Origin: a virus
Lineage: Duplodnaviria; Heunggongvirae; Uroviricota; Caudoviricetes
DNA length: 64,000 bases
Reading direction: 5' to 3' (one strand)
Virus record (IMG/VR): IMGVR_UViG_3300012933_000331
Span: 38,070 to 102,069 of that record
A model generated the notes under the pieces. That model was not told the origin of the DNA. It saw only the letters and a list, made by a program, of their open reading frames with translations, and ran no database searches. Position 1 is the stretch's first letter. Each line of letters opens with the position of its first letter. Below are positions 6,736-64,000 of the stretch, one piece after another. The translations under genes were made by a program, and so were the position numbers.

Positions 6736-7842
6736 TTAAGCGGCGTAGTATTTAACAGTTAGTTCGTTAGCCTGAGCAATGTCATATCCATCGCTTGCAA
6801 GACCACCAACAGAACCCTGTGCTGTGAAGTTAATGGTTGTGGACACAACCTGCTGAACGTCAACAGTTGGGATTGTCAACATTGTTGTTGGCATTGCTAG
6901 TGCTACTTTGATTGCATTTGAGCTACCACCAATAGCAATTTGTAGGTCAAACTTAGGTTCAACGTTGGTTACGTCGGATAACATAGCTGCTAACAGTTGG
7001 CCTGTGTCTGTGGAAGCACCAGTTTTTAGGTAAGCATTTAAACTACCGCTGATAGCACGTGTGCCTGTGAAGTATGTAGCCGGTTGGTTAACGGTACCCA
7101 GGTTAGCTGGAACCAAGTAAGTAATATTGTTGTTGATTGTAATGCTACCACCAGTTAATGCTACTTGATAAGTAACTCCACCTTTTGCAACAGTAGCTGT
7201 GCTCAGCTTGTTGGCAATATAAGGTGCTGTGGTATTTTTCTGTGTATAGCTACCAGTTAATCCACCACCAAAAGTACCTGCAGCTGCAGTACCGTTTGAG
7301 CTCAATCTGCGTAGGGTTTTACCTTGGCCGGACCAAGCGATTGTTGCAATAGCGTCAATGCCAAAGTCAATGGTTGCTTGAGTTAAAACGCAATCATCAA
7401 TAACATAGGTAACATTGTCCAAGATAATAATCAAACCAAACTTTTGTAGTTGGTGTGCATTGGATGCGTCAAAATCAACTGTAGAGAAGCTTGCACCTGC
7501 TGCCCAGCCGTCACCTGTTACGCTACTTAGTGCACCCCATAGTCCAGACTCTTCAGCCTCAACGTTGGTTGTGCCCATGCGAGGACGCATATAAGTACTC
7601 ATTGAAAAGTCAACTGGATCCAAGCTAGTGTTGAAGCTACGCTGACCACGAACAGGAGCGGAACCTGCTTCGTTAATAGTTACTGTTTCTTGACCAGTAT
7701 TTTGTGAGAATGTAAATCCATCAAGAACCTGAATCTCGAAAGTTTTCGCGCTTTCCAGAGCACCAATATCTACTACGCCTGTTGTTGCGGCAACATCAGT
7801 AGTAAAAAATACTCTACTATTACGGACTAAATTTAATGCCAT
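6736..7842 (-). CDS. Major tail protein (tube).
   Basis: 368 aa, rich in Ser, Thr and Gly and predicted to be beta-rich. It sits between the head-tail joining genes and the chaperones and has its own terminator, consistent with high expression. Confidence 0.5.
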   Translation of the reverse strand: MALNLVRNSRVFFTTDVAATTGVVDIGALESAKTFEIQVLDGFTFSQNTGQETVTINEAGSAPVRGQRSFNTSLDPVDFSMSTYMRPRMGTTNVEAEESGLWGALSSVTGDGWAAGASFSTVDFDASNAHQLQKFGLIIILDNVTYVIDDCVLTQATIDFGIDAIATIAWSGQGKTLRRLSSNGTAAAGTFGGGLTGSYTQKNTTAPYIANKLSTATVAKGGVTYQVALTGGSITINNNITYLVPANLGTVNQPATYFTGTRAISGSLNAYLKTGASTDTGQLLAAMLSDVTNVEPKFDLQIAIGGSSNAIKVALAMPTTMLTIPTVDVQQVVSTTINFTAQGSVGGLASDGYDIAQANELTVKYYAA

Positions 7843-21383: not shown

Positions 21384-21644
21384 TCTGGTTCACAAAAAGA
21401 ATTGAATACTCAGGTATTCAATTTTGCGCCAAAATTATATCACATAATTTTGCCCCGTGTCAAGCTTTTTTTGATAACTTATTTTTTGTGTGTGTTTAAA
21501 AAACAACACAAAGCCGTGGTATAATTGTGGCATAGCAGGAAATTAGGAAAACAAGCAAAGACCCCACAAAAAATAAGTCTTTACAAGTTGCCAAAACCTG
21601 CTATAATAGAGGCTTCAACACACAACACACAAAGGAAATTTAAA
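21384..21644. repeat. Promoter/hairpin cassette copy 5.
   Basis: Core motif at 21426..21464. Confidence 0.55.
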
Positions 21645-21971
21645 ATGACTGCAAAAACTGTAAACTACACTGCCGAGCAAACTGCCCAAATCGTGGCCGA
21701 TTATCAGGCTGGTGTGACCACCGAAGCAATCGCTGAAAAATTGGGCAAAACTGTCCGGTCGATTGTGGCAAAATTGAGCCGCGAAGGGGTTTATAAAGCT
21801 AAAACCTACGTTTCAAAAACTGGCGCTCCAGTAGTCAAAAAGGATGCACACGCTGACGCTATCGGCGCGATTCTCAAAATGACTGAATCGGAAATCGAAT
21901 CTCTGACCAAAGCCAATAAAACGGCATTGGAAAAGATTTTCCAAGCGTTGGCAAATTCTAAGCCAATTTGA
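21645..21971 (+). CDS. HTH-domain family paralog (108 aa).
   Basis: MTAKTVNYTAEQ…GKTVRSIVAKLSREGVY. Start trimmed to the ATG at 21645. Confidence 0.6.
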   Translation: MTAKTVNYTAEQTAQIVADYQAGVTTEAIAEKLGKTVRSIVAKLSREGVYKAKTYVSKTGAPVVKKDAHADAIGAILKMTESEIESLTKANKTALEKIFQALANSKPI

Positions 21972-22518: not shown

Positions 22519-22640
22519 GCCCCAAAATGTGTACTTTTGTTTGCTAAACTGAATTAGAAACAAAAGTATTACTTTTGGCTGCGCCAAAATTATACCATAA
22601 TTTTGCGGCCCGTGTCAAGGGTTTTTGCAAATATATTTTT
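22519..22640. repeat. Promoter/hairpin cassette copy 6.
   Basis: Core motif at 22581..22619. Confidence 0.55.
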
Positions 22641-22930
22641 TGTGTTGTTTTCTTGCACCTGGCACGATTCTTGCGCCTGCGGCCAAATGCGAATCATTAT
22701 CATTTGCGTTCGCAATTGCGTGTATGCTTATATAAGAATACACTTATATAAGTCAACGCTTATATGTGTACTTTAGTACGCATGCAAGCATGCTGCGCCA
22801 GTGGAAAAACTTGGCAAGTGCAAAATCTTGGGCTACCTGCGCCAGTGCAAAAACAAGTGTAAAAATTCGCATGTCAGCTTGCGCCAAATTATACCAGTGG
22901 TAAACCTTATGCGTCAAGTGTATTTTCGGC
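22640..22930. repeat. ORF-free region of direct repeats and palindromes: two copies of CTTATATAAG plus CTTATATGTG, the palindrome GCATGCAAGCATGC, and GCGCCAGTG(G/C)AAAAAC direct repeats. Also holds a degenerate cassette copy at 22881..22920. Candidate origin or regulatory region.
   Basis: Read directly from the sequence. No plausible ORF on the plus strand. Confidence 0.4.
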
Positions 22931-23197: not shown

Positions 23198-23509
23198 ATG
23201 ATGACTAAAGCAACTCAAACCAACTACACCACAGAACAAACCCTGGAATTGGTCGCAGCCTACCAAGCCGGTACTGCTGTGGAAACTATCGCAGCTACCA
23301 TGGGCAAAACTGTGCGCTCGGTGGTTGCCAAATTGTCACGCGAAGGCGTGTACGTGGCCAAGACTCGTGCAACCGGCCAAGCCCGTGTGAAAAAGTCTGA
23401 GCTGGTAGACCGTTTGGCTGTGGCCTGCGGCGTGGCTCCAGAAGTGTTTGAATCGCTGGAAAAAGCCAACCACGATGTCTTGGAAGCACTTGTGGCACGC
23501 ATGGCCTGA
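23198..23509 (+). CDS. HTH-domain family paralog (103 aa).
   Basis: …GKTVRSVVAKLSREGVYVAKT…. A promoter TGTATAATATATACTTAAACAG lies upstream. Confidence 0.6.
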   Translation: MMTKATQTNYTTEQTLELVAAYQAGTAVETIAATMGKTVRSVVAKLSREGVYVAKTRATGQARVKKSELVDRLAVACGVAPEVFESLEKANHDVLEALVARMA

Positions 23510-23721
23510 TAGCCTTGCTTGAGGGTCAAGAAATATTGGCTTGATCTTCACAACAAATTCAAGTATAATATATACTTAGACAGTCGGGAAGGGCTTAATG
23601 AATACCACTTCAGTAATGAATTTGGTGCCCGTTCAGCGACAGCGGCCCACCCACCTAACCAGCAATTGAATTGCAATCATCTGTGTGGCCAGCCTGTTCG
23701 CAACGAGTGTCTAATTTTTTA

Positions 23722-23751
23722 CTTGAATATACAGTACAATTACTGTATAAT
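23722..23751 (+). promoter_or_regulatory. sigma70-like promoter (CTTGAA, 18-nt spacer, TATAAT) driving the long non-coding transcript.
   Basis: Read directly from the sequence. Confidence 0.45.
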
Positions 23752-23759
23752 AGATATAT

Positions 23760-24870
23760 AGATTGGGTGACAGCGGTTTAACAATACCATTTGATTTGTT
23801 AAATACGTCTTAATTGTGGGAAATACCGAGCCACAGCCCTTAGTGCCTATAATAAATTGTTTAGACAGTGCTAGCCTGGTGTGCTAGGAGTGTCGTGTAG
23901 ATAATCCGATTAGTAGGATTCGGCCGAATCGTCGAACATCGTAATGCTACAACCACGGCCTAGGCTTTGCTAAGCAATTTATTATGGGCGTTATGAGGTC
24001 TGCATTTATTGCAGTATAACAACTTGATGGTGACCGAATTCTCTAGTCACCGCCCACCAACCCTCTGATGAGCCAGTGCAAGTCTGGCGAAACTCTAAGG
24101 CTCGGGGCAATTTGCAGTGTAGCTCCCACTACGCTCGTTGCCACACCTTAGGGTCAGGAACCCAATGAAAACTGGAAGGGCGAACCTTCGCGGACTTAGT
24201 AGCAAGCACAGAATACGTGCGGGTGAAATCTCTGCTTAGCAAGTCCCTGAAACTTAGTAATTGGTATTGTGCGAAACCCCAGATCTGAATCCTTGATGGT
24301 ATTCTGGCAAGGAGTAGTCCTAGTGAGCAGTTACTATATAAACTGTCGCCTTATCTGGTACCGGCGTAAAATGGTCTTGGCTCTAGAGTGGCCTACTTAC
24401 AGGCCCGAGCTTGATCCTCGTTACTGTGATCCGACCCTAAGCTGTTAGAAGTCGTTAACCCTCAACCAGCCGACCCCAAGTCGTTAAAAGCTGTGACTGC
24501 AGGCGGGCTTAATACCCGAAGCATAACCACCGACCCTAAACTGCTGAGGGGTCACTAAAAATTGTCAGCAGGTGCCGAGCGTTGGAAGCGTGGGCCGTGC
24601 AGGTCGTCACGTAAAACATCCAGGGCTGTGGAGCCGAACCCGTACCACGAGTGATGGTCGAACCCCATCAAAAGTCTCACCTACCAAAACTACAACTGCC
24701 ATAACCTAACAGCAGTCAAAGGTGTTCTGGTTTAGGGTCAGGTAGTAAGTTTATACTCCGGGTGGTGCCCGGCTATAAATCCTGAAGCGAGCAACTAAAA
24801 AAGACATGGCAGTGACGATTGCCTCTTTCAAAAGCCCTACAACGGTCGCTCCGTGTAGGGCTTTTGTTTT
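23760..24870 (+). ncRNA. About 1.1-kb ORF-free transcript unit: promoter, then ~1.07 kb with no ORF of 60 aa or more in any frame, then a strong terminator. Candidate large structured ncRNA.
   Basis: The six-frame track shows no ORF between 23762 and 25067 on either strand. The region contains three (C)CGACCC(T/C)AA repeats at 24431, 24468 and 24531 and inverted GACCCTAA copies, and ends in the 24831..24870 terminator. Confidence 0.45.
24831..24870 (+). terminator. Strong intrinsic terminator.
   Basis: aaagccctacaacggtcgctccgtgtagggcttt followed by tgttttg. Confidence 0.7.
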
Positions 24871-24884
24871 GCCACAACACTTGT

Positions 24885-24957
24885 GCGCCAAAATTCAAGT
24901 GCAAAACTTTCGAGGTCCTGCGCCATTATACAAGTGCTGAACCTTGTGCGTCAAGTG
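24885..24957. repeat. Degenerate cassette copy: gcgccaaaattcaagtgcaaaac…gcgccattatacaagtg…gtgcgtcaagtg.
   Basis: Shares the GCGCCAA…TATA…GTGCGTCAAGTG motif with the copy at 22881..22920. Together they flank the non-coding region. Confidence 0.4.
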
Positions 24958-25067
24958 TGTTTTCTTAATCATACTGACCCTAAGGCAGTGCAAATTGTGG
25001 ACGCAAAAAAGCCTCTAATCGTCACTGATTAGAGGCTTTTTGTTTAATTAACGCAAATTATGTCAGA

Positions 25068-25379
25068 TTACGGCGATTTAGGGTCAGATAACCGCGATTC
25101 AATCAATTTAAGTACTACTTTGTTGACTTTTTCTAGGGATTCCAGCAATTCCAGGTCGCAATCCAATAATGTGGCAATCCGCTCGATGTGTTCGGATTTT
25201 TTCACTGGAATTTCACCGCGCTTGTTGACATAAGACTTTTTTTGGTAGACTCCAAGGCTTGATAGCTTGGCAATTATTGAGCGCTCGGGCAGGTCGAGCT
25301 GCTGTGCGAGCTGGTGAACCGGCACCCCCGCTTGGTAGTCGGCTACTAGACGGTCACAAATTTCTTTGGTGTATTTCAT
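25068..25379 (-). CDS. HTH-domain family paralog (103 aa), the only minus-strand member.
   Basis: …LPERSIIAKLSSLGVYQKKSYVNKRGE… aligns with the paralog at 17130. Confidence 0.55.
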   Translation of the reverse strand: MKYTKEICDRLVADYQAGVPVHQLAQQLDLPERSIIAKLSSLGVYQKKSYVNKRGEIPVKKSEHIERIATLLDCDLELLESLEKVNKVVLKLIESRLSDPKSP

Positions 25380-25391
25380 GTTTGTGACTCC

Positions 25392-26390
25392 TTATAACCA
25401 CGGAAAGTCTGGGTTTTCACCATTAGACTTAAACTGAGGCTTAGAAACGGATTCCTGCTTGAAAATATCTGTGGAAATAAGTGGAGCAGGAATTGAATCC
25501 CACGCTTGAGGGTCCAAAATCATATACTTGGTACGATTGCTTGGATGTGCACACCAGATTTGAGCAATCATTGTTTGTGCAAGTTCTGGCACTTTGTGCA
25601 ATTTAGTGCCAGTAGTATCATATAGTTTAAAAGTACTCAAGGGGTTGCGCTGTGTACCCGCCTTAGTGCCAGTTTTATAAGTCAAACCCTGCTCTCGGGC
25701 CTGCAAAATTTCTTCGCGAGCCATGTCTGGAACTTCACACAACATGGCTTTACACAAACTATCGTTGACCACGTACTTGATAGTATCGCGATCCCACTCC
25801 GAATACTTGATATTCTGATTTAATTTAAAGGCAAAAGGAATAAGGGGAACTAAGCTGCAGTATGTGCGGCCCTCGCCTTTGTATTGGCTGCTAATCCAGC
25901 TGCTGCGAGAGTCAAGCAGCAAGAACTGATACAGCCCTAAATCCCACTCGCTGCTGAAGTCAAAGATTTGAGCCGCCATTTTGCGACCATTGATTTTACC
26001 CTCAGGCGTCATAACTTCAGCAAGCCTGATAGGTTTATGGGTCAGCCAGCTGACGATCTGTGGCATAACCCAAGTCTGCATGATAGTTTCCAGTTTGTAT
26101 CTGGGAATAAAATCTGTGATAATAGCCGAGCTACCTGCTTTATTGCGTACTCGTGCAGACTCTGGATGTTTTTTGTAGGGGTACTGATCTGAAAAATTAC
26201 CCTCAAATGGGGCTTCATGAGTGTCAGACCAATTTCGTTCAAGTTGGGCAATAAATTCGTCGTATCGTTCACTATTCTCAGCTTCTAGTGTTTGTTCTGC
26301 CATATCTGCGGCATCCATAAACATTTTATAAGCTATGTCAAAAGGAATCGAACGTAGTTCTCGGGTGGTTGTTCGTGTTAAAAAACTCAT
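25392..26390 (-). CDS. Hypothetical protein (332 aa).
   Basis: Long ORF with a tightly spaced neighbour. Confidence 0.5.
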   Translation of the reverse strand: MSFLTRTTTRELRSIPFDIAYKMFMDAADMAEQTLEAENSERYDEFIAQLERNWSDTHEAPFEGNFSDQYPYKKHPESARVRNKAGSSAIITDFIPRYKLETIMQTWVMPQIVSWLTHKPIRLAEVMTPEGKINGRKMAAQIFDFSSEWDLGLYQFLLLDSRSSWISSQYKGEGRTYCSLVPLIPFAFKLNQNIKYSEWDRDTIKYVVNDSLCKAMLCEVPDMAREEILQAREQGLTYKTGTKAGTQRNPLSTFKLYDTTGTKLHKVPELAQTMIAQIWCAHPSNRTKYMILDPQAWDSIPAPLISTDIFKQESVSKPQFKSNGENPDFPWL

Positions 26391-26776
26391 TTGGTAAATA
26401 CCTTGACCCTAAAGTAAAACACGCACACTAGCTAGGGCTCAAGGCTAGAGTGGGCGATATCCCAAAGTTGGGACAATTATCGTGATTGGTTTATAGTTGA
26501 GATTAGTTCAAAATACAAAGCTTAAAAACAAGCAGACTTATACTATTTGAACATTTAAACAAATTGTTTGTGATTGCACACTTTTCATTAGACCCTAAAT
26601 CGTCGTAACCTGCAGGGGGCCAGCAGGTAACTTCTCATAGGAAGAAAAGTGTTATCACACAATTTGCTATCTTTGATGATTTACTTTATATATTATAACA
26701 CAAAAAAATTAAAATACAAGATGTATTTTTAGTTGTGCATCTTGTACTAGTAGTAAAATCTCTGATTTAGACGGCA

Positions 26777-37976: not shown

Positions 37977-38177
37977 ATGGCAGGCTATTCACGCGACTTT
38001 TTAATTGATGCCTTCATGAGCCGTTACATCAAATGTACCTTGATTTCAATCGAGAGTCTTGTACGGCTAGAACAAATGGCAAATGATCTTTATGATCGAG
38101 TAGGTCGCGATAGCTTTCGTACTTATGCTAGCTTAGATGCTACAGCACTTCGAGTCTATAAAAACAGTCTTGAATGA
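37977..38177 (+). CDS. Hypothetical protein (66 aa).
   Basis: Track ORF; promoter TGATATAAT upstream. Confidence 0.35.
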   Translation: MAGYSRDFLIDAFMSRYIKCTLISIESLVRLEQMANDLYDRVGRDSFRTYASLDATALRVYKNSLE

Positions 38178-41076: not shown

Positions 41077-41151
41077 ACTGCTATCGTCTATCGGTTAGGA
41101 CACCGGGTTTTCAACCCGATAAGAGGGGTTCGACTCCCCTTAGCAGTACCA
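41077..41151 (+). tRNA. tRNA-Glu (TTC).
   Basis: Acceptor actgcta/tagcagt; anticodon loop ttttcaa; T arm agggg-ttcgact-cccct; CCA. Confidence 0.6.
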
Positions 41152-42407: not shown

Positions 42408-42725
42408 TTAAATTAAAGAACTTAGTGTAGTGATTAGATTTCAGGTACTTCATACTATGAAACTACCGTTAAATTCGCAACATTCAGCAGGTCTTCGTTG
42501 CTCCTGCCTAAGTTTAAGGTAAGCGTTCTTTGATAGGTAAACGCTTCCAGCCCTGAACTAGAGTGTTCTCTCTGAGTTCTTTAATTTAGGTATAGTGAAA
42601 GAAACAGTTACTTCACTTCTAATGACGATGTCGGTGGTTCGAGTCCACCTAAGCTGGTCTCTAGCTTATAGCTCAGTTGGTAGAGCGCGCAAATCTCTGT
42701 TTCGCCTAGTTCTTACTTATTTACA
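42408..42725 (+). ncRNA. Candidate Y-RNA-like (YrlA-type) ncRNA immediately upstream of rsr. It has a long terminal helix and a tRNA-like module.
   Basis: An 18-bp helix forms between 42409-42426 (taaattaaagaacttagtg) and 42573-42590 (ctgagttctttaattta). A T-arm/acceptor-3' module ggtgg-ttcgagt-ccacc-taagctg lies at 42627..42656. It is followed by a tRNA 5'-half-like segment (tagctta-ta-gctcagttggtagagc…) at 42668..42700. No credible ORF; rsr starts at 42735. Confidence 0.4.
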
Positions 42726-42734
42726 AGGAATCAA

Positions 42735-44045
42735 ATGTCTTCGATCAATCGTGTTGTGCGTCAGCCTGCTACAAATTCAGTGGGTACGCAAGTATCCCAA
42801 ATTAATGCAGAACGTCAGCTAAAGCGTGTAACCATGGCAGCAATGTTGTGGGAAAACCAGTTCTATATGGACGGTAAAACTCATGCCGAATTGGTCAAAG
42901 ACCTTGTAGCCAAAGTCGCTCCTGAAAAGGTTTCGGCTCTGGCTGAGGAAGCCCGTACAAAGTTTAAACTTCGTCACATTCCTCTGTTGCTTGTACGCGA
43001 ACTTGCTCGAAACGGAAAAATGCAAGCACAAGCCCTAACCAATGTTATTCAACGTCCAGACGAAATGTCTGAATTTTTGAGTATCTATTGGAAGGAAGGC
43101 AAAACTGCTGTATCGAACCAAGTTAAAAAAGGCCTTGCAGCTTGCTTTAACAAGTTTTCGGAATACCAGCTTGCCAAATGGAATAAGAATTCATCCGCAA
43201 TCAAATTGCGCGATGTAATGTTTATCTCCCACCCTAAACCGCAAAATGCCGAGCAAACAGCGCTGTTCCAGCGCATTGCGGCTGATACACTTGAAACTCC
43301 CGACACATGGGAAACTCAATTATCTAGCGGCGCAGATAAGTGTGGTACGTTTACTCGTCTTATGACTGAGAAGAAGCTAGGTGCTCTAGCTTTCTTGCGT
43401 AATCTGCGTAATATGCGCGACAGTGGTGTAGCGGATTCCCTTATCCGCAGTTATGCACAAACTGTTGACGTTAGCAAAGTCCTGCCTTTCCGCTATATTG
43501 CGGCGGCACGTATTGTTCCACAATACGAGGATATGCTAGAACAAATGATGTTTCGCAGCCTAGCGACACATCAAAAAATTCCTGGAAAGACTGTTCTGTT
43601 GATCGACGTAAGTGGCTCAATGTTCGGTACCAGAATTTCCTCAAAATCAGATCTAGATCGCTTCGATGCGGCAGCAGCACTCGCTATGCTGTGCCGTGAA
43701 GTTTGTGAGGAAGTCGAGATTTATAGCTTTAGTAATAATGCTGTGCGCGTTGCACCTCGTCGTGGATTTGCTCTCCGCGAAGCTATTTCAAGCTCTCAAA
43801 GTCACGGTGGAACTGCTCTTGGCAATTCCATGAAGACTGTAAACAGCGCGAGTTCATATGACCGTTGCATTGTGTTTACTGATGAGCAAAGCTATGATCG
43901 CCCAGGTGCTCCTCGTGGTAAAGGTTACGTTATCAACGTAGCTGCCTACGAAAACGGAGTCAACCACCAAGCATGGACTGAGATCAATGGTTTCTCAGAA
44001 GCTGTAATTGATTACATCCAGGCATTGGAGCAGGAAGCTGCTTAA
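42735..44045 (+). CDS. rsr: Ro60 ortholog Rsr (TROVE plus vWA domains).
   Basis: C-terminal vWA domain with MIDAS motif VLLIDVSGSM…GGTALGN…CIVFTDEQSY, closely matching the Ro60 pattern (DVSxSM…GGTD…IVFTDNE). The N-terminus is TROVE-like. Confidence 0.7.
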   Translation: MSSINRVVRQPATNSVGTQVSQINAERQLKRVTMAAMLWENQFYMDGKTHAELVKDLVAKVAPEKVSALAEEARTKFKLRHIPLLLVRELARNGKMQAQALTNVIQRPDEMSEFLSIYWKEGKTAVSNQVKKGLAACFNKFSEYQLAKWNKNSSAIKLRDVMFISHPKPQNAEQTALFQRIAADTLETPDTWETQLSSGADKCGTFTRLMTEKKLGALAFLRNLRNMRDSGVADSLIRSYAQTVDVSKVLPFRYIAAARIVPQYEDMLEQMMFRSLATHQKIPGKTVLLIDVSGSMFGTRISSKSDLDRFDAAAALAMLCREVCEEVEIYSFSNNAVRVAPRRGFALREAISSSQSHGGTALGNSMKTVNSASSYDRCIVFTDEQSYDRPGAPRGKGYVINVAAYENGVNHQAWTEINGFSEAVIDYIQALEQEAA

Positions 44046-46633: not shown

Positions 46634-46740
46634 TATTTTAGCATATTACTTGCCACTTAATGCATATATGTGGAGTAACGCGCGCACACCTTCCACGGGT
46701 AATCAGGAGCACCTGACATGGGTAGTATGCTAAAATATGG
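46631..46740 (+). repeat. Conserved inverted-repeat element, copy B. CCATATTTTAGCATAT, ~75-nt loop, then TAGTATGCTAAAATATGG. Its right arm is the 5' end of the tmRNA acceptor piece.
   Basis: Covaries with copy A (40201..40318). Identical 12- and 14-mers recur at 47077..47088 and 47122..47135. Confidence 0.5.
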
Positions 46741-47090
46741 TTGTATGAAGCAGACAGAAACAGGTTCTGGACGCGGGTTCGAGTCCCGCCAGCTCCACCA
46801 TAAGCGTATTTAAGGGGGTTCGAGTCCTCTCTATAAAACTGGTAGTTGTAAGTAATACGCTTTTGATGGGGCTGCATTTGGTTTCGACAGGGCAAAGAGT
46901 AAACAAGTAGACAACTCGGCAATGTAGAAGCCGTAGGGTTAGGGATTCCTGGCCGCAGAAGCAAAACAAAAATAAACGCAAACGATACACAGTTCGCATT
47001 GGTAGCCTAACAGCCGCCTAGGGTTTTGTCAGGTTTTCCTCGTAACAGAATAAACCTGACCCTAAACCAACATAAATTTTAGCATATTGA
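46721..47090 (+). ncRNA. ssrA: Circularly permuted (two-piece) tmRNA gene. The acceptor piece (…T arm, CCAGCUCCACCA) is at ~46721..46800, an intervening segment at 46801..46867, and the coding piece (GGGGCUG…tag ORF…) at 46868..~47090.
   Basis: The 3' hallmark ctggacgcgggttcgagtcccgccagctccacca ends at 46800, upstream of the 5' hallmark ggggctgcatttggtttcgacaggg beginning at 46868. Acceptor pairing ggggctg/cagctcc keeps G3:U70. The resume codon and tag GCA AAC GAT ACA CAG TTC GCA TTG GTA GCC TAA (46978..47010) encode (A)ANDTQFALVA, preceded by …gcaaaacaaaaataaac as in E. coli tmRNA. No T arm or acceptor follows the tag. A putative P2 pairing joins 46722-46735 with 47077-47088. Confidence 0.7.
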
Positions 47091-47149
47091 ACCACATATG
47101 GCAATCAGAGCCGGACTGTCGTAGTATGCTAAAATTTATGAAGGAAACC

Positions 47150-47737
47150 ATGAAATACACAAACATTCTCGACCCTAAATTGTTTCAGTCGGACAAATAC
47201 TCAAACAATTTCACCAAGCCAGTCGCACACATTCATGAGTTTTATCTTAGCGGGCCAATTTGTGACGCTGAAGAATACATTGAGTGGTTTGACGTTATTC
47301 GTAACGCATCAGCAACTGACACAATTCGCATTTACATCAATAGCCCTGGTGGTGACCTATTTACTACACTACAGTTCTTGCGAGTAATGTCGGACACAGA
47401 TGCTACTGTTGTTTGTAGTGTAGAAGGCGCTTGTATGAGTGCAGCTACCATGATCTTCCTACACGGTCATAGTCAAGAAGTTACTCCACATAGCTTGTTT
47501 ATGTTTCACAACTATAGTGCCGGAACATTTGGCAAAGGCGGCGAAATGTACGATCAGCTGCAGTTTGAACGTACTTGGTCAGAAAACTTTATGACTGAAG
47601 TGTATCAAGGCTTTTTGACACCTGAAGAAATCTCCTCAATGATGCACAACAAAGACATTTGGATGGGTTCTGAAGAAGTTGTCCGTCGTCTAACAGCCAT
47701 GCAAGCACAGCGTGAAGCTGAAGCAGCACAAGAATAA
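47150..47737 (+). CDS. clpP: ClpP-like serine protease (S14 family).
   Basis: …IYINSPGGDLFTTLQFL…VEGACMSAATMIFLHGH… matches ClpP signatures (INSPGG, GxAxSxAxxI). RBS aaggaaa precedes the ATG at 47150. The gene lies immediately downstream of the tmRNA. Confidence 0.65.
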   Translation: MKYTNILDPKLFQSDKYSNNFTKPVAHIHEFYLSGPICDAEEYIEWFDVIRNASATDTIRIYINSPGGDLFTTLQFLRVMSDTDATVVCSVEGACMSAATMIFLHGHSQEVTPHSLFMFHNYSAGTFGKGGEMYDQLQFERTWSENFMTEVYQGFLTPEEISSMMHNKDIWMGSEEVVRRLTAMQAQREAEAAQE

Positions 47738-60737: not shown

Positions 60738-60941
60738 ATGTCAGACCCAGAATACGACGTAGTACTAGACACACTACGAAAACAGTATGATAAGCTAATG
60801 GAAATAACTATGCGTAATATGCGCAGTGAATTTCTAAATATGGGAATTATGGACGATATTCGACTAAATCAGTGTGAGCAGCTACAGCACGCAATGCTTG
60901 TCTGGCAATCACATAAGCATTTACCAAAAGCAGGAGATTAA
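60738..60941 (+). CDS. Hypothetical protein (67 aa).
   Basis: Track ORF. Confidence 0.4.
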   Translation: MSDPEYDVVLDTLRKQYDKLMEITMRNMRSEFLNMGIMDDIRLNQCEQLQHAMLVWQSHKHLPKAGD

Positions 60942-60942
60942 T

Positions 60943-61797
60943 ATGTCAGACCCAGTACTAGAACTCATACAGAAAAACGACCTGAAGTTTAGTGTTTCGG
61001 GTCGTGACTACTTAATCAAATGCTTAAATCCAGACCACCAAGACTCAAACCCTAGTTTTCGTGTAGACAAAGTAACGGGCGTAGCCCATTGCTTTGCCTG
61101 CGGGTTTAAAACAAATCTATTCAAGTACTATGGTGTATTCACCAACCTAGTACCAATGAAGATTTTGGCATTAAAAGAAAAGCTGGATGCACTTAAAAAG
61201 TTTGGTCAAGAACTAGACTTGCCACAAGGCTACACACCTTGGACAAAACAGTTTCGTGGCGTTAGTCCTGCAACTCTTAAGCATTTTGGGGCTTTTTATA
61301 CAAATCAAGTAGAAAAGCTACAAGACCGTATTATCTTTCCAATCAAAGATATTACCAATAAAACGCAAGTGTTTGTTGGCCGACACACAATGTCCAACGG
61401 TAATCCCAGATATATCAACTATCCTCAAGGGGTAAAGATTCCGCTTTACCCAGCGCATTTACCTAGTGGTTACTCATCAATGGTAATTGTTGAGGGCTTG
61501 TTTGATATGTTGAACTTATACGACAACGGTTGTGAGAATGTTGTGTGTGCTTTTGGTACTAACACGCTTCAAAACGACACAAAACAAAAGCTGCTGCCAT
61601 TCAGAGCACAAGGCATCACACACGTTTACCTTTTATTTGATGGTGACGATGCGGGTCGTAGTGCCGCAAAAAACTTAAAGCCCCTGCTGGAGGCAGAGGG
61701 TTTTATCACAGAAATTGTTGACTTACCAGATGGAAGTGATCCCGGCGATTTAGATGCCGAGAACGTTCGATCAATCGCAGAGTATGTTAATAAATAA
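60943..61797 (+). CDS. DNA primase (zinc-binding domain plus TOPRIM).
   Basis: …CLNPDHQDSNPSF…HCFACGF… zinc ribbon and TOPRIM …VIVEGLFD…LFDGDDAGRSAA…. RBS caggagat precedes the ATG at 60943. Confidence 0.65.
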   Translation: MSDPVLELIQKNDLKFSVSGRDYLIKCLNPDHQDSNPSFRVDKVTGVAHCFACGFKTNLFKYYGVFTNLVPMKILALKEKLDALKKFGQELDLPQGYTPWTKQFRGVSPATLKHFGAFYTNQVEKLQDRIIFPIKDITNKTQVFVGRHTMSNGNPRYINYPQGVKIPLYPAHLPSGYSSMVIVEGLFDMLNLYDNGCENVVCAFGTNTLQNDTKQKLLPFRAQGITHVYLLFDGDDAGRSAAKNLKPLLEAEGFITEIVDLPDGSDPGDLDAENVRSIAEYVNK

Positions 61798-61850
61798 ACT
61801 TGAAATCTTAGCTTAGATACGCTATAATAAAGTATCACAAGGAATTATAA

Positions 61851-64000
61851 ATGAAAATTGCAGTTATTGATAAAGCACCGAACCGCACTCGGTATAGTGA
61901 CTACTTTGAGTTTGAGTTTGACCATTTTCACATGAGTTCAGTGCCAATTACTAAGTTGCTGAAAAAAGACGTTGACCTAGAAGTTGACCTGACTGAATAC
62001 GACTTTGTTATCTTGGTTGGTTCAGAAGCTGCCAAAGAGTACGCAAAAATTACGTCGGTTACAAACATGGCTGGACAGCTTGTTAATGACAAGTTCATTG
62101 CTATCTCTAATCCAGCTATGCTGAGCTTTAAGCCAGAAGGTAAGCCCGACTTTCAGCGTGCTGTAGACCGTATTCACAAATATATCAAAGGCCAGCTAAA
62201 ACCCAATATTCAGGGTGATTTTAAAGGCATTGATGATACTGCTGAAGCCAAGCGTTTCTTGCGTGAAGTGCTAGAAAACGCCCAAGGCTATGTTGCATGG
62301 GACACGGAAACAACCTGCCTTTACCCACGCGATGGTTATGTACTAGGCGTTTCCATGAGTTATAAAACTCAGCATGGTCGATATATCTTAACTGATTGTC
62401 TAGACGACGTGTGCCTAGACTTGATGCGTAAGATTGCCCGCGAGTTTTACACAGTATTTCACAACATGAAGTTCGACTTTAAGATGATTAAGTATCACCT
62501 TGATATCGACTTTCCTCGTGATCGTGTACACGACACAATGGTTATGCACTACGTGCTAGACGAAACTGATAGTCATGGTTTGAAACCTCTGGCCCTAAAG
62601 TACACCAACTACGGTGATTACGATTCGGAACTAGATGACTACAAGAAAGCATACTGTGCCGCTAATGGTATGTTGCAAGATGATTTTACTTATGACCTTA
62701 TTCCGTTTGATACCATTAGTCGTTACGCTTCGATTGACACAGCCGTTACATACGACCTTTTCCACAAGTTCTGGCCCATTGTACAAGCTAACGACAAATT
62801 GCGTAAGGTTTATGAAGAAATCTTGATTCCAGGTACACTGTTCTTGATGGACATGGAAGAAGTTGGTATTCCCATGAGCACAGAGCGCATGGCTGCTGCT
62901 TCAAAGTACTTGGACTACGAGATTGAAGAAGCCAAAAAGGTCGTTTATAGTTTTGAAGCTGTCAAGCAATATGAAAAAGATTCTGGAAAAATATTCAACC
63001 CTAACTCAGTTATGCAGCTTCGTGTTGTGCTTTTCGATTACCTGGGGCTCAACCCTACTGGTAAGAAAACTGCTACCGGAGCCGTCTCAACTGACGCAGA
63101 AGTGCTCGGAGAGTTATCTGAAGAACACCCCTTGCCAGCGGCTATTCTAAAGGTTCGTCAGCTTGGAAAAATTCAGAATACCTATATTTCAAAGATTTTA
63201 CCGGAAATTGATCGCGACGGTCGTATTCGTACAAATTTTAACCTTATCTTTACTACTAGTGGTCGTCTTAGTAGTTCTGGGAAGTTCAATGCTCAGCAAA
63301 TACCTCGCGACGACCCTATTATCAAAGGTTGTATTCAGGCTCCAGCTGGCTATAAAATCGTATCGCAGGATTTGACCACAGCCGAAATGTATTATGCGGC
63401 TGTGTTATCGGGTGATAAGAACTTGCAAGAAGTTTTCAGCTCAGGCGGTGACTTTCACTCAACAATTGCTAAAATGGTATTCTCATTGCCTTGTGCGGTT
63501 GAAGATGTTAAAAAGTTGTTTGGAAGTATGCGTCAGAGTGCTAAAGCTATTTCATTCGGTATTTTGTACGGCTCTGGTGCTAACAAAGTGGCGGCCACTG
63601 TTACCAAAGGTCTGCCAGATGGTGAAAGCTATCCAGTTGAACAAGCCCGTGATGATATTAAACAATACTTTACAAAGTTCAGCAAGCTAAAGAAATGGCT
63701 TGATGATCGCAAAAACTTTATTCAAACTAATGGTTACACATACTCATTCTTTGGCCGGAAACGCCGACTACCTAATGTCTTTAGCGCAGATAAAGGCATT
63801 GCAGCTCACGAAGTCCGTAGTGGAATTAACGCCGAAGTACAGAGTCTCGCCAGTGATGTTAACTTACTTGGCGCTATGCGAACAGCAAATGAAGTGGCAG
63901 CAAAAGGGCTAGATGCTAAAATCTTTATGTTGGTTCATGACTCGATTGTTGCGCTAGTAAAAGACGAAGATGTGGTGGAATACTGCGAGATCCTAAAGCG
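61851..64000 (+). CDS. Family-A DNA polymerase (3'-5' exonuclease plus polymerase), truncated at the window end.
   Basis: Open frame from ATG 61851 to the window edge. Exo I …VAWDTETTCLYP…; motif B RQSAKAISFGILYG; motif C …VHDSIV…. Absent from the ORF track because it has no stop in the window. Confidence 0.65.
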   Translation, partial: MKIAVIDKAPNRTRYSDYFEFEFDHFHMSSVPITKLLKKDVDLEVDLTEYDFVILVGSEAAKEYAKITSVTNMAGQLVNDKFIAISNPAMLSFKPEGKPDFQRAVDRIHKYIKGQLKPNIQGDFKGIDDTAEAKRFLREVLENAQGYVAWDTETTCLYPRDGYVLGVSMSYKTQHGRYILTDCLDDVCLDLMRKIAREFYTVFHNMKFDFKMIKYHLDIDFPRDRVHDTMVMHYVLDETDSHGLKPLALKYTNYGDYDSELDDYKKAYCAANGMLQDDFTYDLIPFDTISRYASIDTAVTYDLFHKFWPIVQANDKLRKVYEEILIPGTLFLMDMEEVGIPMSTERMAAASKYLDYEIEEAKKVVYSFEAVKQYEKDSGKIFNPNSVMQLRVVLFDYLGLNPTGKKTATGAVSTDAEVLGELSEEHPLPAAILKVRQLGKIQNTYISKILPEIDRDGRIRTNFNLIFTTSGRLSSSGKFNAQQIPRDDPIIKGCIQAPAGYKIVSQDLTTAEMYYAAVLSGDKNLQEVFSSGGDFHSTIAKMVFSLPCAVEDVKKLFGSMRQSAKAISFGILYGSGANKVAATVTKGLPDGESYPVEQARDDIKQYFTKFSKLKKWLDDRKNFIQTNGYTYSFFGRKRRLPNVFSADKGIAAHEVRSGINAEVQSLASDVNLLGAMRTANEVAAKGLDAKIFMLVHDSIVALVKDEDVVEYCEILK

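Follow-up and report, generated by a model that had tools for sequence, protein, structure and literature searches.

Why should a tightly packed phage genome leave 1,306 nucleotides (nt) without a gene? The stretch in question, positions 23762-25067, lies in a 64,000-nt window (the whole stretch of DNA that was analysed, positions 38,070 to 102,069 of IMG/VR virus record IMGVR_UViG_3300012933_000331). To judge by its sequence, the source of the window is a distant T5-like phage. Its portal protein has ~40% identity to the portals of Vibrio T5-like phages, and its gene content includes a transfer-messenger RNA (tmRNA) and 25 tRNAs. We think it likely that the locus produces a ~1.1-kb noncoding RNA (ncRNA) from the + strand, built of locally closed domains and containing a hammerhead ribozyme, and that this RNA is a self-processing early transcript from an undescribed modular family of uncultured T5-like phages. 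An earlier note on this DNA had proposed a structured ncRNA here, and the comparison with relatives bears this out: the layout is kept in about 20 syntenic loci, and covariation on the + strand is seen in the 5′ domain, the hammerhead and a conserved 3′ block. The ribozyme, the modular build of the family and its link to tRNA-Glu had not been noticed in that note. The elements of the unit are as follows.

23723..23751, + strand: promoter P2, TTGAAT-17-TATAAT, found by promoter scan, with an A/T tract upstream
23765..23840, + strand: universal 5′ domain
23847..23988, + strand: long hairpin, optional
23986..24055, + strand: central three-way-junction domain
24061..24159, + strand: complete type I hammerhead ribozyme
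24310..24395, + strand: conserved 3′ block of two hairpins
24431..24575, + strand: three GACCCUAA-type modules (24431, 24470, 24530), repeat family D6
24729..24744, + strand: second conserved GGUUUAGGGUCAGGUA site, a copy of the genome-wide TTTAGGGTCA motif
24831..24870, + strand: intrinsic terminator

A noncoding transcription unit and its relatives

With gaps defined by the absence, on both strands, of any start-codon-defined open reading frame (ORF) of at least 60 amino acids (aa), the gap at 23762-25067 is the longest in the window, against a median of 82 nt, and the earlier note was right to call it unusual. The second-longest gap (1,080 nt) is packed with tRNAs. The largest ORF within 23762-25067 has 59 aa (24269-24448); stops occur in every frame (16-29 each), and no frame is open across the region. 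When any single stop is reassigned, the longest frame reaches ~131 of 376 codons, and none of the tRNAs of the window phage is a suppressor. A hidden protein gene, read through unusual starts or a reassigned stop, could draw some support from open frames of up to 154 codons in some relatives, but these are chance frames that differ in position and strand and have no PHROG match. The earlier note had raised the possibility of a coding gene reached by alternative starts or codes; under standard and alternative codes we found no conserved ORF and no protein-family match, and we consider such a gene scarcely credible.

The unit is framed by clear transcription signals. Promoter P2 and its upstream A/T tract are kept in 17/17 aligned relatives, and would place the 5′ end of the RNA near 23758. 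The sigma70 promoter described in the earlier note is therefore real, although its register (CTTGAA-18) was off by 1 nt. At the other end, the terminator (stem GCCCUACA/UGUAGGGC followed by a U-run; fold −24.7 kcal/mol) is present in every relative with compensatory changes in its stem, in agreement with what had been claimed; it was overlooked by the scan tool because its loop is 12 nt long, and it probably works in both directions. Such a strong, T5-like promoter makes it probable that the RNA reaches high levels early in infection.

When IMG/VR was probed with the upstream helix-turn-helix (HTH) gene (23198-23509), 41 loci were obtained, about 20 of which keep the same frame: an HTH gene, a gap of 0.8-2.1 kb with a strong + strand terminator, and a convergent HTH paralog. 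The gap DNA shows conserved blocks alternating with variable stretches across relatives. A pattern derived from the invariant 5′ motif found 68 loci in IMG/VR, and 54 unique RNAs were retrieved in total, all on contigs of uncultured T5-like phages; the 5′ domain is universal among retrieved members, being itself the search criterion. In 185,579 species genomes the same pattern gave a single match, on a 2.9-kb contig of a metagenome-assembled genome, and we regard the RNA as phage-specific because of this difference. Since a blastn search against 50,697 phage records returned no match, we have no cultured relative with the RNA. In Rfam 15, the unit has no match at gathering thresholds and, at E <= 10, nothing relevant beyond a sub-threshold Hammerhead_3 hit; the families that the earlier note had suggested checking (group I/II introns, OLE, ROOL) gave no convincing match, nor did any other.

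The hammerhead ribozyme and the 5′ half of the RNA

One domain of the RNA is a complete type I hammerhead, identified by its core, by covariation and by a covariance model (R1). On the + strand it is laid out as follows.

24061-24064: stem I, 3′ strand, CCCU
24065-24071: core, CUGAUGA
24072-24088: stem II with a GCAA (GNRA) loop
24089-24091: GAA
24092-24100: stem III, 5′ strand
24101-24145: extended stem III hairpin with a UCCCA loop
24146-24154: stem III, 3′ strand
24155: C17
24156-24159: stem I, 5′ strand, AGGA

The predicted cleavage site lies between C24155 and A24156. In the 31 aligned sequences, the catalytic positions C3, U4, G5, A6, G8, A9, G12, A13 and A14 are invariant, the A15.1-U16.1 pair is A-U in 31/31, N7 is U, C or A, and position 17 is never G (nearly all members have C as H17, and loci L010 and L083 have A). 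Loop II is always a GNRA tetraloop (GCAA, GAAA or GUAA). The helices, by comparison, drift and compensate. RNAalifold, run without a prior, returns exactly stems I, II and III; 91.6% of cells are paired, against 76.9% in shuffled alignments (0/500 as high) and 29-45% when the partners are slid; and double changes occur in 14 of 20 pairs (84 cells against 24 expected). Even the short stem I covaries, from CCCU/AGG to CCUU/AAGG to UCCA/UGGA. Invariant catalytic nucleotides within drifting, compensating helices are the signature of selection for catalysis. The model R1, built from the 31-sequence alignment, has a sole hit in the window (24053-24177, 106 bits, E 9e-32), and in 100 loci, many of which overlap the same contigs, it gives one hit each in 77 and two in none. 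Most members of the family thus have the hammerhead.

The 5′ domain is a further structured block, which consists of GGGUGACAGCGG, a variable hairpin (P2a), ACGUCUUAAUUGUGG, a variable loop and CCGAGCCACAGCCC, with 31 invariant columns in 34 sequences. Its helices are P1 (GGGY/GCCC), P2 (GAC/GUC), P2a and P3 (UGUGG/CCACA), these names being distinct from those of the promoters. Helix P2 is replaced among relatives by GUC/GAC, GUA/UAC or GGAA/UUCC, and the sequence of P2a is replaced entirely between phages with pairing retained. Over the four helices tested, 87.3% of cells are paired, compared with 78.6% after column shuffling (0/500 shuffles as high) and 36-46% with partners slid, and there are 54 double-change cells against 18 expected. 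The covariation check across related phages that the earlier note had called for thus supports the helices on the + strand.

Between these two blocks lie the long hairpin and the junction domain. The arms of the hairpin (CCUAUAAUAAAUUGUUUAGAC and UUUGCUAAGCAAUUUAUUAUGGG) show compensatory changes, and the minimum free energy (MFE) fold recovers it; it is missing in several relatives. In the junction domain (MFE z-score −3.30), a closing helix GGGCG/CGCCC surrounds the hairpins GUUAU..AUAAC and GGUGAC..GUCACC, and this helix is also compensatory (for example, CUAGGU/ACCUAG in L033). As a whole, the predicted 5′ cleavage product folds much better than shuffled sequences (z −4.06, 0/100). Two further contacts were tried and rejected. 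Pairing of the 5′ GGGUG with GCCCACCA, which would give a minihelix or acceptor stem like that of a tRNA, shows no covariation, and GCCCAC instead closes the junction domain; a kissing interaction of the UCCCA loop with UGGGA in the 5′ domain does not covary either.

These pairings also bear on whether the locus acts as DNA, for instance as an iteron origin, a packaging or injection-stop region, or a cluster of HTH operators, with no functional RNA. Some features would suit this idea. The TTTAGGGTCA motif recurs genome-wide, with 13 copies in the window against 1.3 expected (the TTAGGGTCA motif, as TAGGGTCA / TGACCCTA), mostly intergenic, with TAGGGTCA examples at 26404, 40911, 47057, 48949, 56215 and 25079; in relatives, TAGGGTCA forms operator-like palindromes around the −35 box of the upstream promoter; and repeat cassettes lie on both flanks of the unit. 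However, pairing in the unit is kept by compensatory changes, and G-U pairs are frequent (such as 18 U-G at stem III pair 42-109). As G-U pairs form only in the + strand RNA, they fix both the strand and selection at the RNA level. The conserved promoter and terminator frame a transcript, and the unit is G+C-rich (48.5%, against 42.1% for the window). We therefore hold a purely DNA-level role to be very improbable. The more specific idea of a replication origin was rejected: the unit has no A+T-rich unwinding element and no inflection of the cumulative GC skew, and Tandem Repeats Finder reports no tandem repeats or iterons within 23700-24900. The origin-associated transcript offered as an option in the earlier note fails on the same composition and skew, and on the G-U pairs as a mark of RNA-strand selection. 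As for TAGGGTCA itself, it may serve the D5-like HTH paralogs as an operator, or else be a recurring RNA module.

Transcripts of phages and prophages were already known to contain hammerheads (Perreault et al. 2011, PMC3088659), and the ribozyme described here resembles the type I hammerhead (Rfam clan CL00010) in its full core, its three covarying helices, its A15.1-U16.1 pair, its GUC (rarely GUA) triplet and its open stem I. It differs from known hammerheads in several respects: stem III is extended by a conserved hairpin of ~54 nt that ends in a UCCCA loop, stem I has only 3-5 base pairs (bp), loop II is a conserved GNRA, some members hold a module of 40-60 nt in stem II, and the ribozyme sits within a conserved ~1-kb ncRNA instead of between genes. 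It is also undetected by Rfam models. We found no paper in the literature searched that combines hammerheads with T5-like phages. This is a new hammerhead subtype missed by every Rfam model, within a new ~1-kb family that has its own invariant 5′ domain; current Rfam hammerhead models thus miss a whole ribozyme clade with long stem III inserts.

tRNA-Glu, the 3′ region and proposed processing of the transcript

At least 15 members have a tRNA embedded downstream of the junction domain and upstream of the hammerhead; without exception this is tRNA-Glu(UUC), never a suppressor. It adjoins the 3′ strand of stem I or sits ~92 nt upstream of that strand; in L019, position 6928 is the end of the tRNA and the cut is predicted near 7024. 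This strict association with tRNA-Glu(UUC) is new, and occurs in phages known for tRNAs that counter host anticodon nucleases. The RNA of the window itself has no tRNA, and the tRNA-Glu(UUC) of the window phage is found in the main tRNA cluster (41077-41151). The tRNA-bearing members recall the theta ribozymes, which are hepatitis delta virus (HDV)-like, lie beside phage tRNAs and cut at the tRNA 3′ end (Kienbeck et al. 2024, PMC10879173): in both cases a small self-cleaving ribozyme is located directly 3′ of a phage tRNA in a single transcript. In contrast to theta ribozymes, the fold here is a hammerhead and not HDV-like, and the predicted cut lies ~95 nt past the tRNA end, so the ribozyme would stay on the tRNA-containing piece and the downstream RNA would obtain a clean end.

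The family is modular in other respects. A GACCCUAAAC..UUUAAAA module, of the kind seen in the 3′ region, is inserted in hammerhead stem II in L021, L025, L033 and L083, and further modules are gained or lost independently between members. The contig ends inside the RNA body in 14 of the 54 unique members, and one contig, IMGVR_UViG_3300043436_004120 (L099, L081/L002), carries a copy of the RNA at each end; the two copies share only 127 identical nt and are ~90% identical over the rest. Such frequent breaks inside the RNA, and two ~90% copies on one contig, point to strain-level hypervariability of the locus. The paired copies were also considered as a terminal repeat, which we rejected on the grounds that full identity is limited to 127 nt; the assembly instead breaks at this strain-variable locus.

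This modularity could mean that the locus encodes a set of small stable RNAs in one operon, which would be cut free chiefly by RNase P and RNase E of the host, the hammerhead being one cutter among others. The locally closed domains, arranged like beads on a string, the independent gain and loss of modules and the genuine tRNA inside many members all fit this idea, and RNase P should excise an embedded tRNA. Nevertheless, the hammerhead and the tRNA are the only processing signals identified, and the window RNA lacks the second of these. We consider such an operon possible but doubtful, and it overlaps with a self-processing transcript more than it excludes one.

Downstream of the hammerhead, RNAalifold shows double compensatory changes in 4 of 10 pairs of the conserved 3′ block, whose two hairpins (UAGUGA-GCAG-UUACUA and CGCC-UUAUCUGGUAC-GGCG) have conserved loop sequences. 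The third GACCCUAA module forms an H-type pseudoknot (S1 GACCC/GGGUC, S2 CUGCUGA/UCAGCAG) in which S2 covaries in L019 and L013. The internal repeats listed in the earlier note are real as CCGACCCTAA-type copies, with two positions shifted (24470 and 24530 in place of 24468 and 24531), and its inverted copies are present as TTAGGGTCAGG at 24147, 24731 and 25077, the repeats being covered by families D5 and D6. Because TAGGGTCA is enriched window-wide and mostly intergenic, these internal repeats belong to a genome-wide motif family.

Three interpretations of this region were rejected. The second UUUAGGGUCAGG site (24729-24744) is not an alternative hammerhead substrate that would give a circularisable middle fragment, as it does not covary with stems I and III: it ignores the switch of stem I to UGGA (L052, L060, L070) and the changes in stem III (L010, L016, L019, L076). 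A long-range pairing of the same site with the GACCCUAAAC module at 24530 is uncompensated in L010 and L003, where the local pseudoknot stem is kept. Finally, ToxI-like antitoxin arrays of type III systems consist of near-identical tandem repeats of ~34-36 nt beside a toxin gene. Here, the GACCCUAA units have no more than 10-14 nt in common and are spaced 39 and 60 nt apart, Tandem Repeats Finder is empty, and no toxin ORF adjoins.

From these elements a pathway can be proposed. The strong T5-type sigma70 promoter would drive a + strand transcript to the intrinsic terminator, and the type I hammerhead would cut it between C24155 and A24156. The 5′ product, ~400 nt long, would comprise the 5′ domain, the long hairpin, the junction domain and the ribozyme, and end in a 2′,3′-cyclic phosphate; tRNA-Glu, where present, would stay on this upstream piece with the ribozyme. 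The 3′ product, ~715 nt, would run to the terminator from a 5′-OH start, released scar-free because in the type I topology the whole ribozyme lies 5′ of the cut. In bacterial RNA decay, such ends resist 5′-monophosphate-dependent entry of RNase E and 3′ exonucleases, which would favour accumulation of both pieces. What the sequences show is a unit with transcription signals, no coding, conservation, covariation of the + strand RNA and a full hammerhead consensus; cleavage in vivo, the chemistry of the ends and the pieces as the functional species are what we infer, and the cellular role could be in stable-RNA or tRNA expression, or as a scaffold or decoy.

Several observations weigh against this proposal. 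We found no tertiary partner, receptor or pseudoknot for the GNRA loop II; with this and a stem I of 3-5 bp, fast cleavage at physiological Mg2+ is not assured. The Rfam Hammerhead_3 model scores 20.6 bits against a threshold of 48.5, and no Rfam hammerhead hits were obtained in 7 relatives; the 54-nt insert in stem III and the permuted topology likely account for this miss, and the threshold is a criterion of detection, not of biochemistry. Seven divergent members keep the promoter, 5′ domain and terminator without a recognisable hammerhead, so cleavage is not essential to every member. For the 3′ product, the fold is not notably more stable than that of shuffles (z −0.75) and conservation is patchy, which leaves comparative evidence as the whole case for its structure.

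Part of this would suit an intact large scaffold, in which the hammerhead is silent, slow or conditionally switched and not constitutive. The short stem I, the missing receptor and the members entirely without a ribozyme all agree with it, and Perreault et al. (PMC3088659) suggest that slow phage hammerheads could be regulated. The models for a scaffold of this kind are GOLLD and ROOL, large tRNA-associated phage RNAs (Weinberg et al. 2017, PMC5737381; Kretsch et al. 2025, PMC12286853), and the family shares with them its size, its several domains, its pseudoknots, its phage or prophage origin and its tRNA association (at least 15 members here). However, the GOLLD and ROOL covariance models give no hit even at E <= 10, and the present family differs in its lytic-type T5-like phages, its self-cleaving ribozyme and its strong gain and loss of modules. 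A silent ribozyme sits poorly with catalytic nucleotides that never change across 31 diverse sequences, in helices that drift and compensate, and with a loop II that is always a GNRA tetraloop. We therefore judge the intact scaffold to be unlikely, and retain the self-processing transcript as our preferred reading.

Bacteria and phages have few large structured ncRNAs, and every new one, from RNase P, group II introns and OLE to GOLLD and ROOL, has led to new biology. The family described here offers a biochemical handle in the form of a precisely predicted hammerhead cut inside a ~1-kb RNA, and this RNA could plausibly take part in host takeover or counter-defence. One could go further and imagine, as a speculation that we would not expect to hold, a new class of large modular phage RNA in which a novel binding or catalytic 5′ fold is coupled to a hammerhead switch that releases two end-protected RNAs for early infection. 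If so, the fold of the 5′ domain would be new and would bind a ligand or a protein, or be catalytic; the released RNAs would be a cyclic-phosphate piece able to carry tRNA-Glu and a 5′-OH piece of repeated pseudoknot modules; their early role might be, for example, as decoys for host defences that target tRNAs or sense RNA, or as substrates for the Ro60 / Y-RNA system with which the phage itself handles RNA; and the hypervariable RNA body would reflect an arms race.

Flanking genes, repeat cassettes and other RNAs of the window

The surroundings of the unit are also conserved in part, and include the following elements.

23198..23509, + strand: upstream HTH gene of a D5-like regulator family (PHROG match), paralog of 25068-25379
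23541..23569, + strand: upstream tandem promoter P1, TTGATC-17-TATAAT, repeat family D7
24925..24964, − strand: sigma70 promoter-like cassette, TTGACG-18-TATAAT (24954..24925), family D1, aimed back at the terminator
25068..25379, − strand: downstream convergent HTH paralog

The two flanking HTH genes (103 aa each, 42% mutual identity, convergent) frame the RNA in conserved synteny. The locus is surrounded by at least three D5-like HTH paralogs (21525-21971, 23198-23509 and 25068-25379), and in relatives three or four copies are arranged as in the window. The 332-aa neighbour at 25392-26390, used as a probe, retrieved no relatives.

Promoter P1 is of the same type as the promoters of small genes nearby. 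It is followed by a conserved leader, CAGUCGGGAAGGGCUUAAUG, and by a 23-codon ORF (23599-23670) that differs in length among relatives; within the leader, GCGACAGCGGCCCAC resembles the motif of the 5′ domain.

Copies of the minus-strand cassette are found at 22589-22628, 22888-22927 and 24925-24964, each with a near-consensus TTGACx-18-TATAAT followed by TTTGGCGCAG. At least two of them (22618..22589 and 24954..24925) are aimed at a nearby terminator hairpin, the one beyond the RNA terminator is conserved in relatives, and they could drive short antisense or small RNAs. The flanking promoter cassettes reported in the earlier note thus exist, as a separate minus-strand element and not as copies of the RNA's own promoter. 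The repeat block it placed at 22640-22930 is also present, and contains GCGCCA-type repeats (D2, D4, D8) and a single weak 16-nt tandem repeat.

After the main terminator, the window holds a lone GACCCUAAGG module followed by a perfect 15-bp bidirectional terminator (25006-25041), the whole spanning 24973-25045. Relatives have one or two GACCCUAAGG-type modules at the corresponding position, and this module may be a separate small RNA. Another stretch without an ORF of at least 60 aa, 796 nt long, is located at 61839-62634, just past the primase gene (60874-61797), and has no Rfam match at gathering thresholds.

A Y RNA (YrlA) was rejected as an identity for the unit, with no Rfam YrlA hit in 23500-25100. 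Elsewhere, within the tRNA cluster, an ORF of Ro60/Rsr type (TROVE and vWA domains) occupies 42735-44045, and directly upstream of it lies a YrlA-like hit (42601-42706; 35.1 bits, E 3e-5, against an Rfam gathering score of 69); 42601-44045 is probably a phage Ro60 / Y-RNA pair. The tmRNA is of the beta-proteobacterial, permuted type, with the tag ANDTQFALVA, and is followed directly by a ClpP-like protease gene at 47087-47737 (the two spanning 46699-47737), which suggests a phage-borne pair for tagging and degradation and gives a hint of a betaproteobacterial host.

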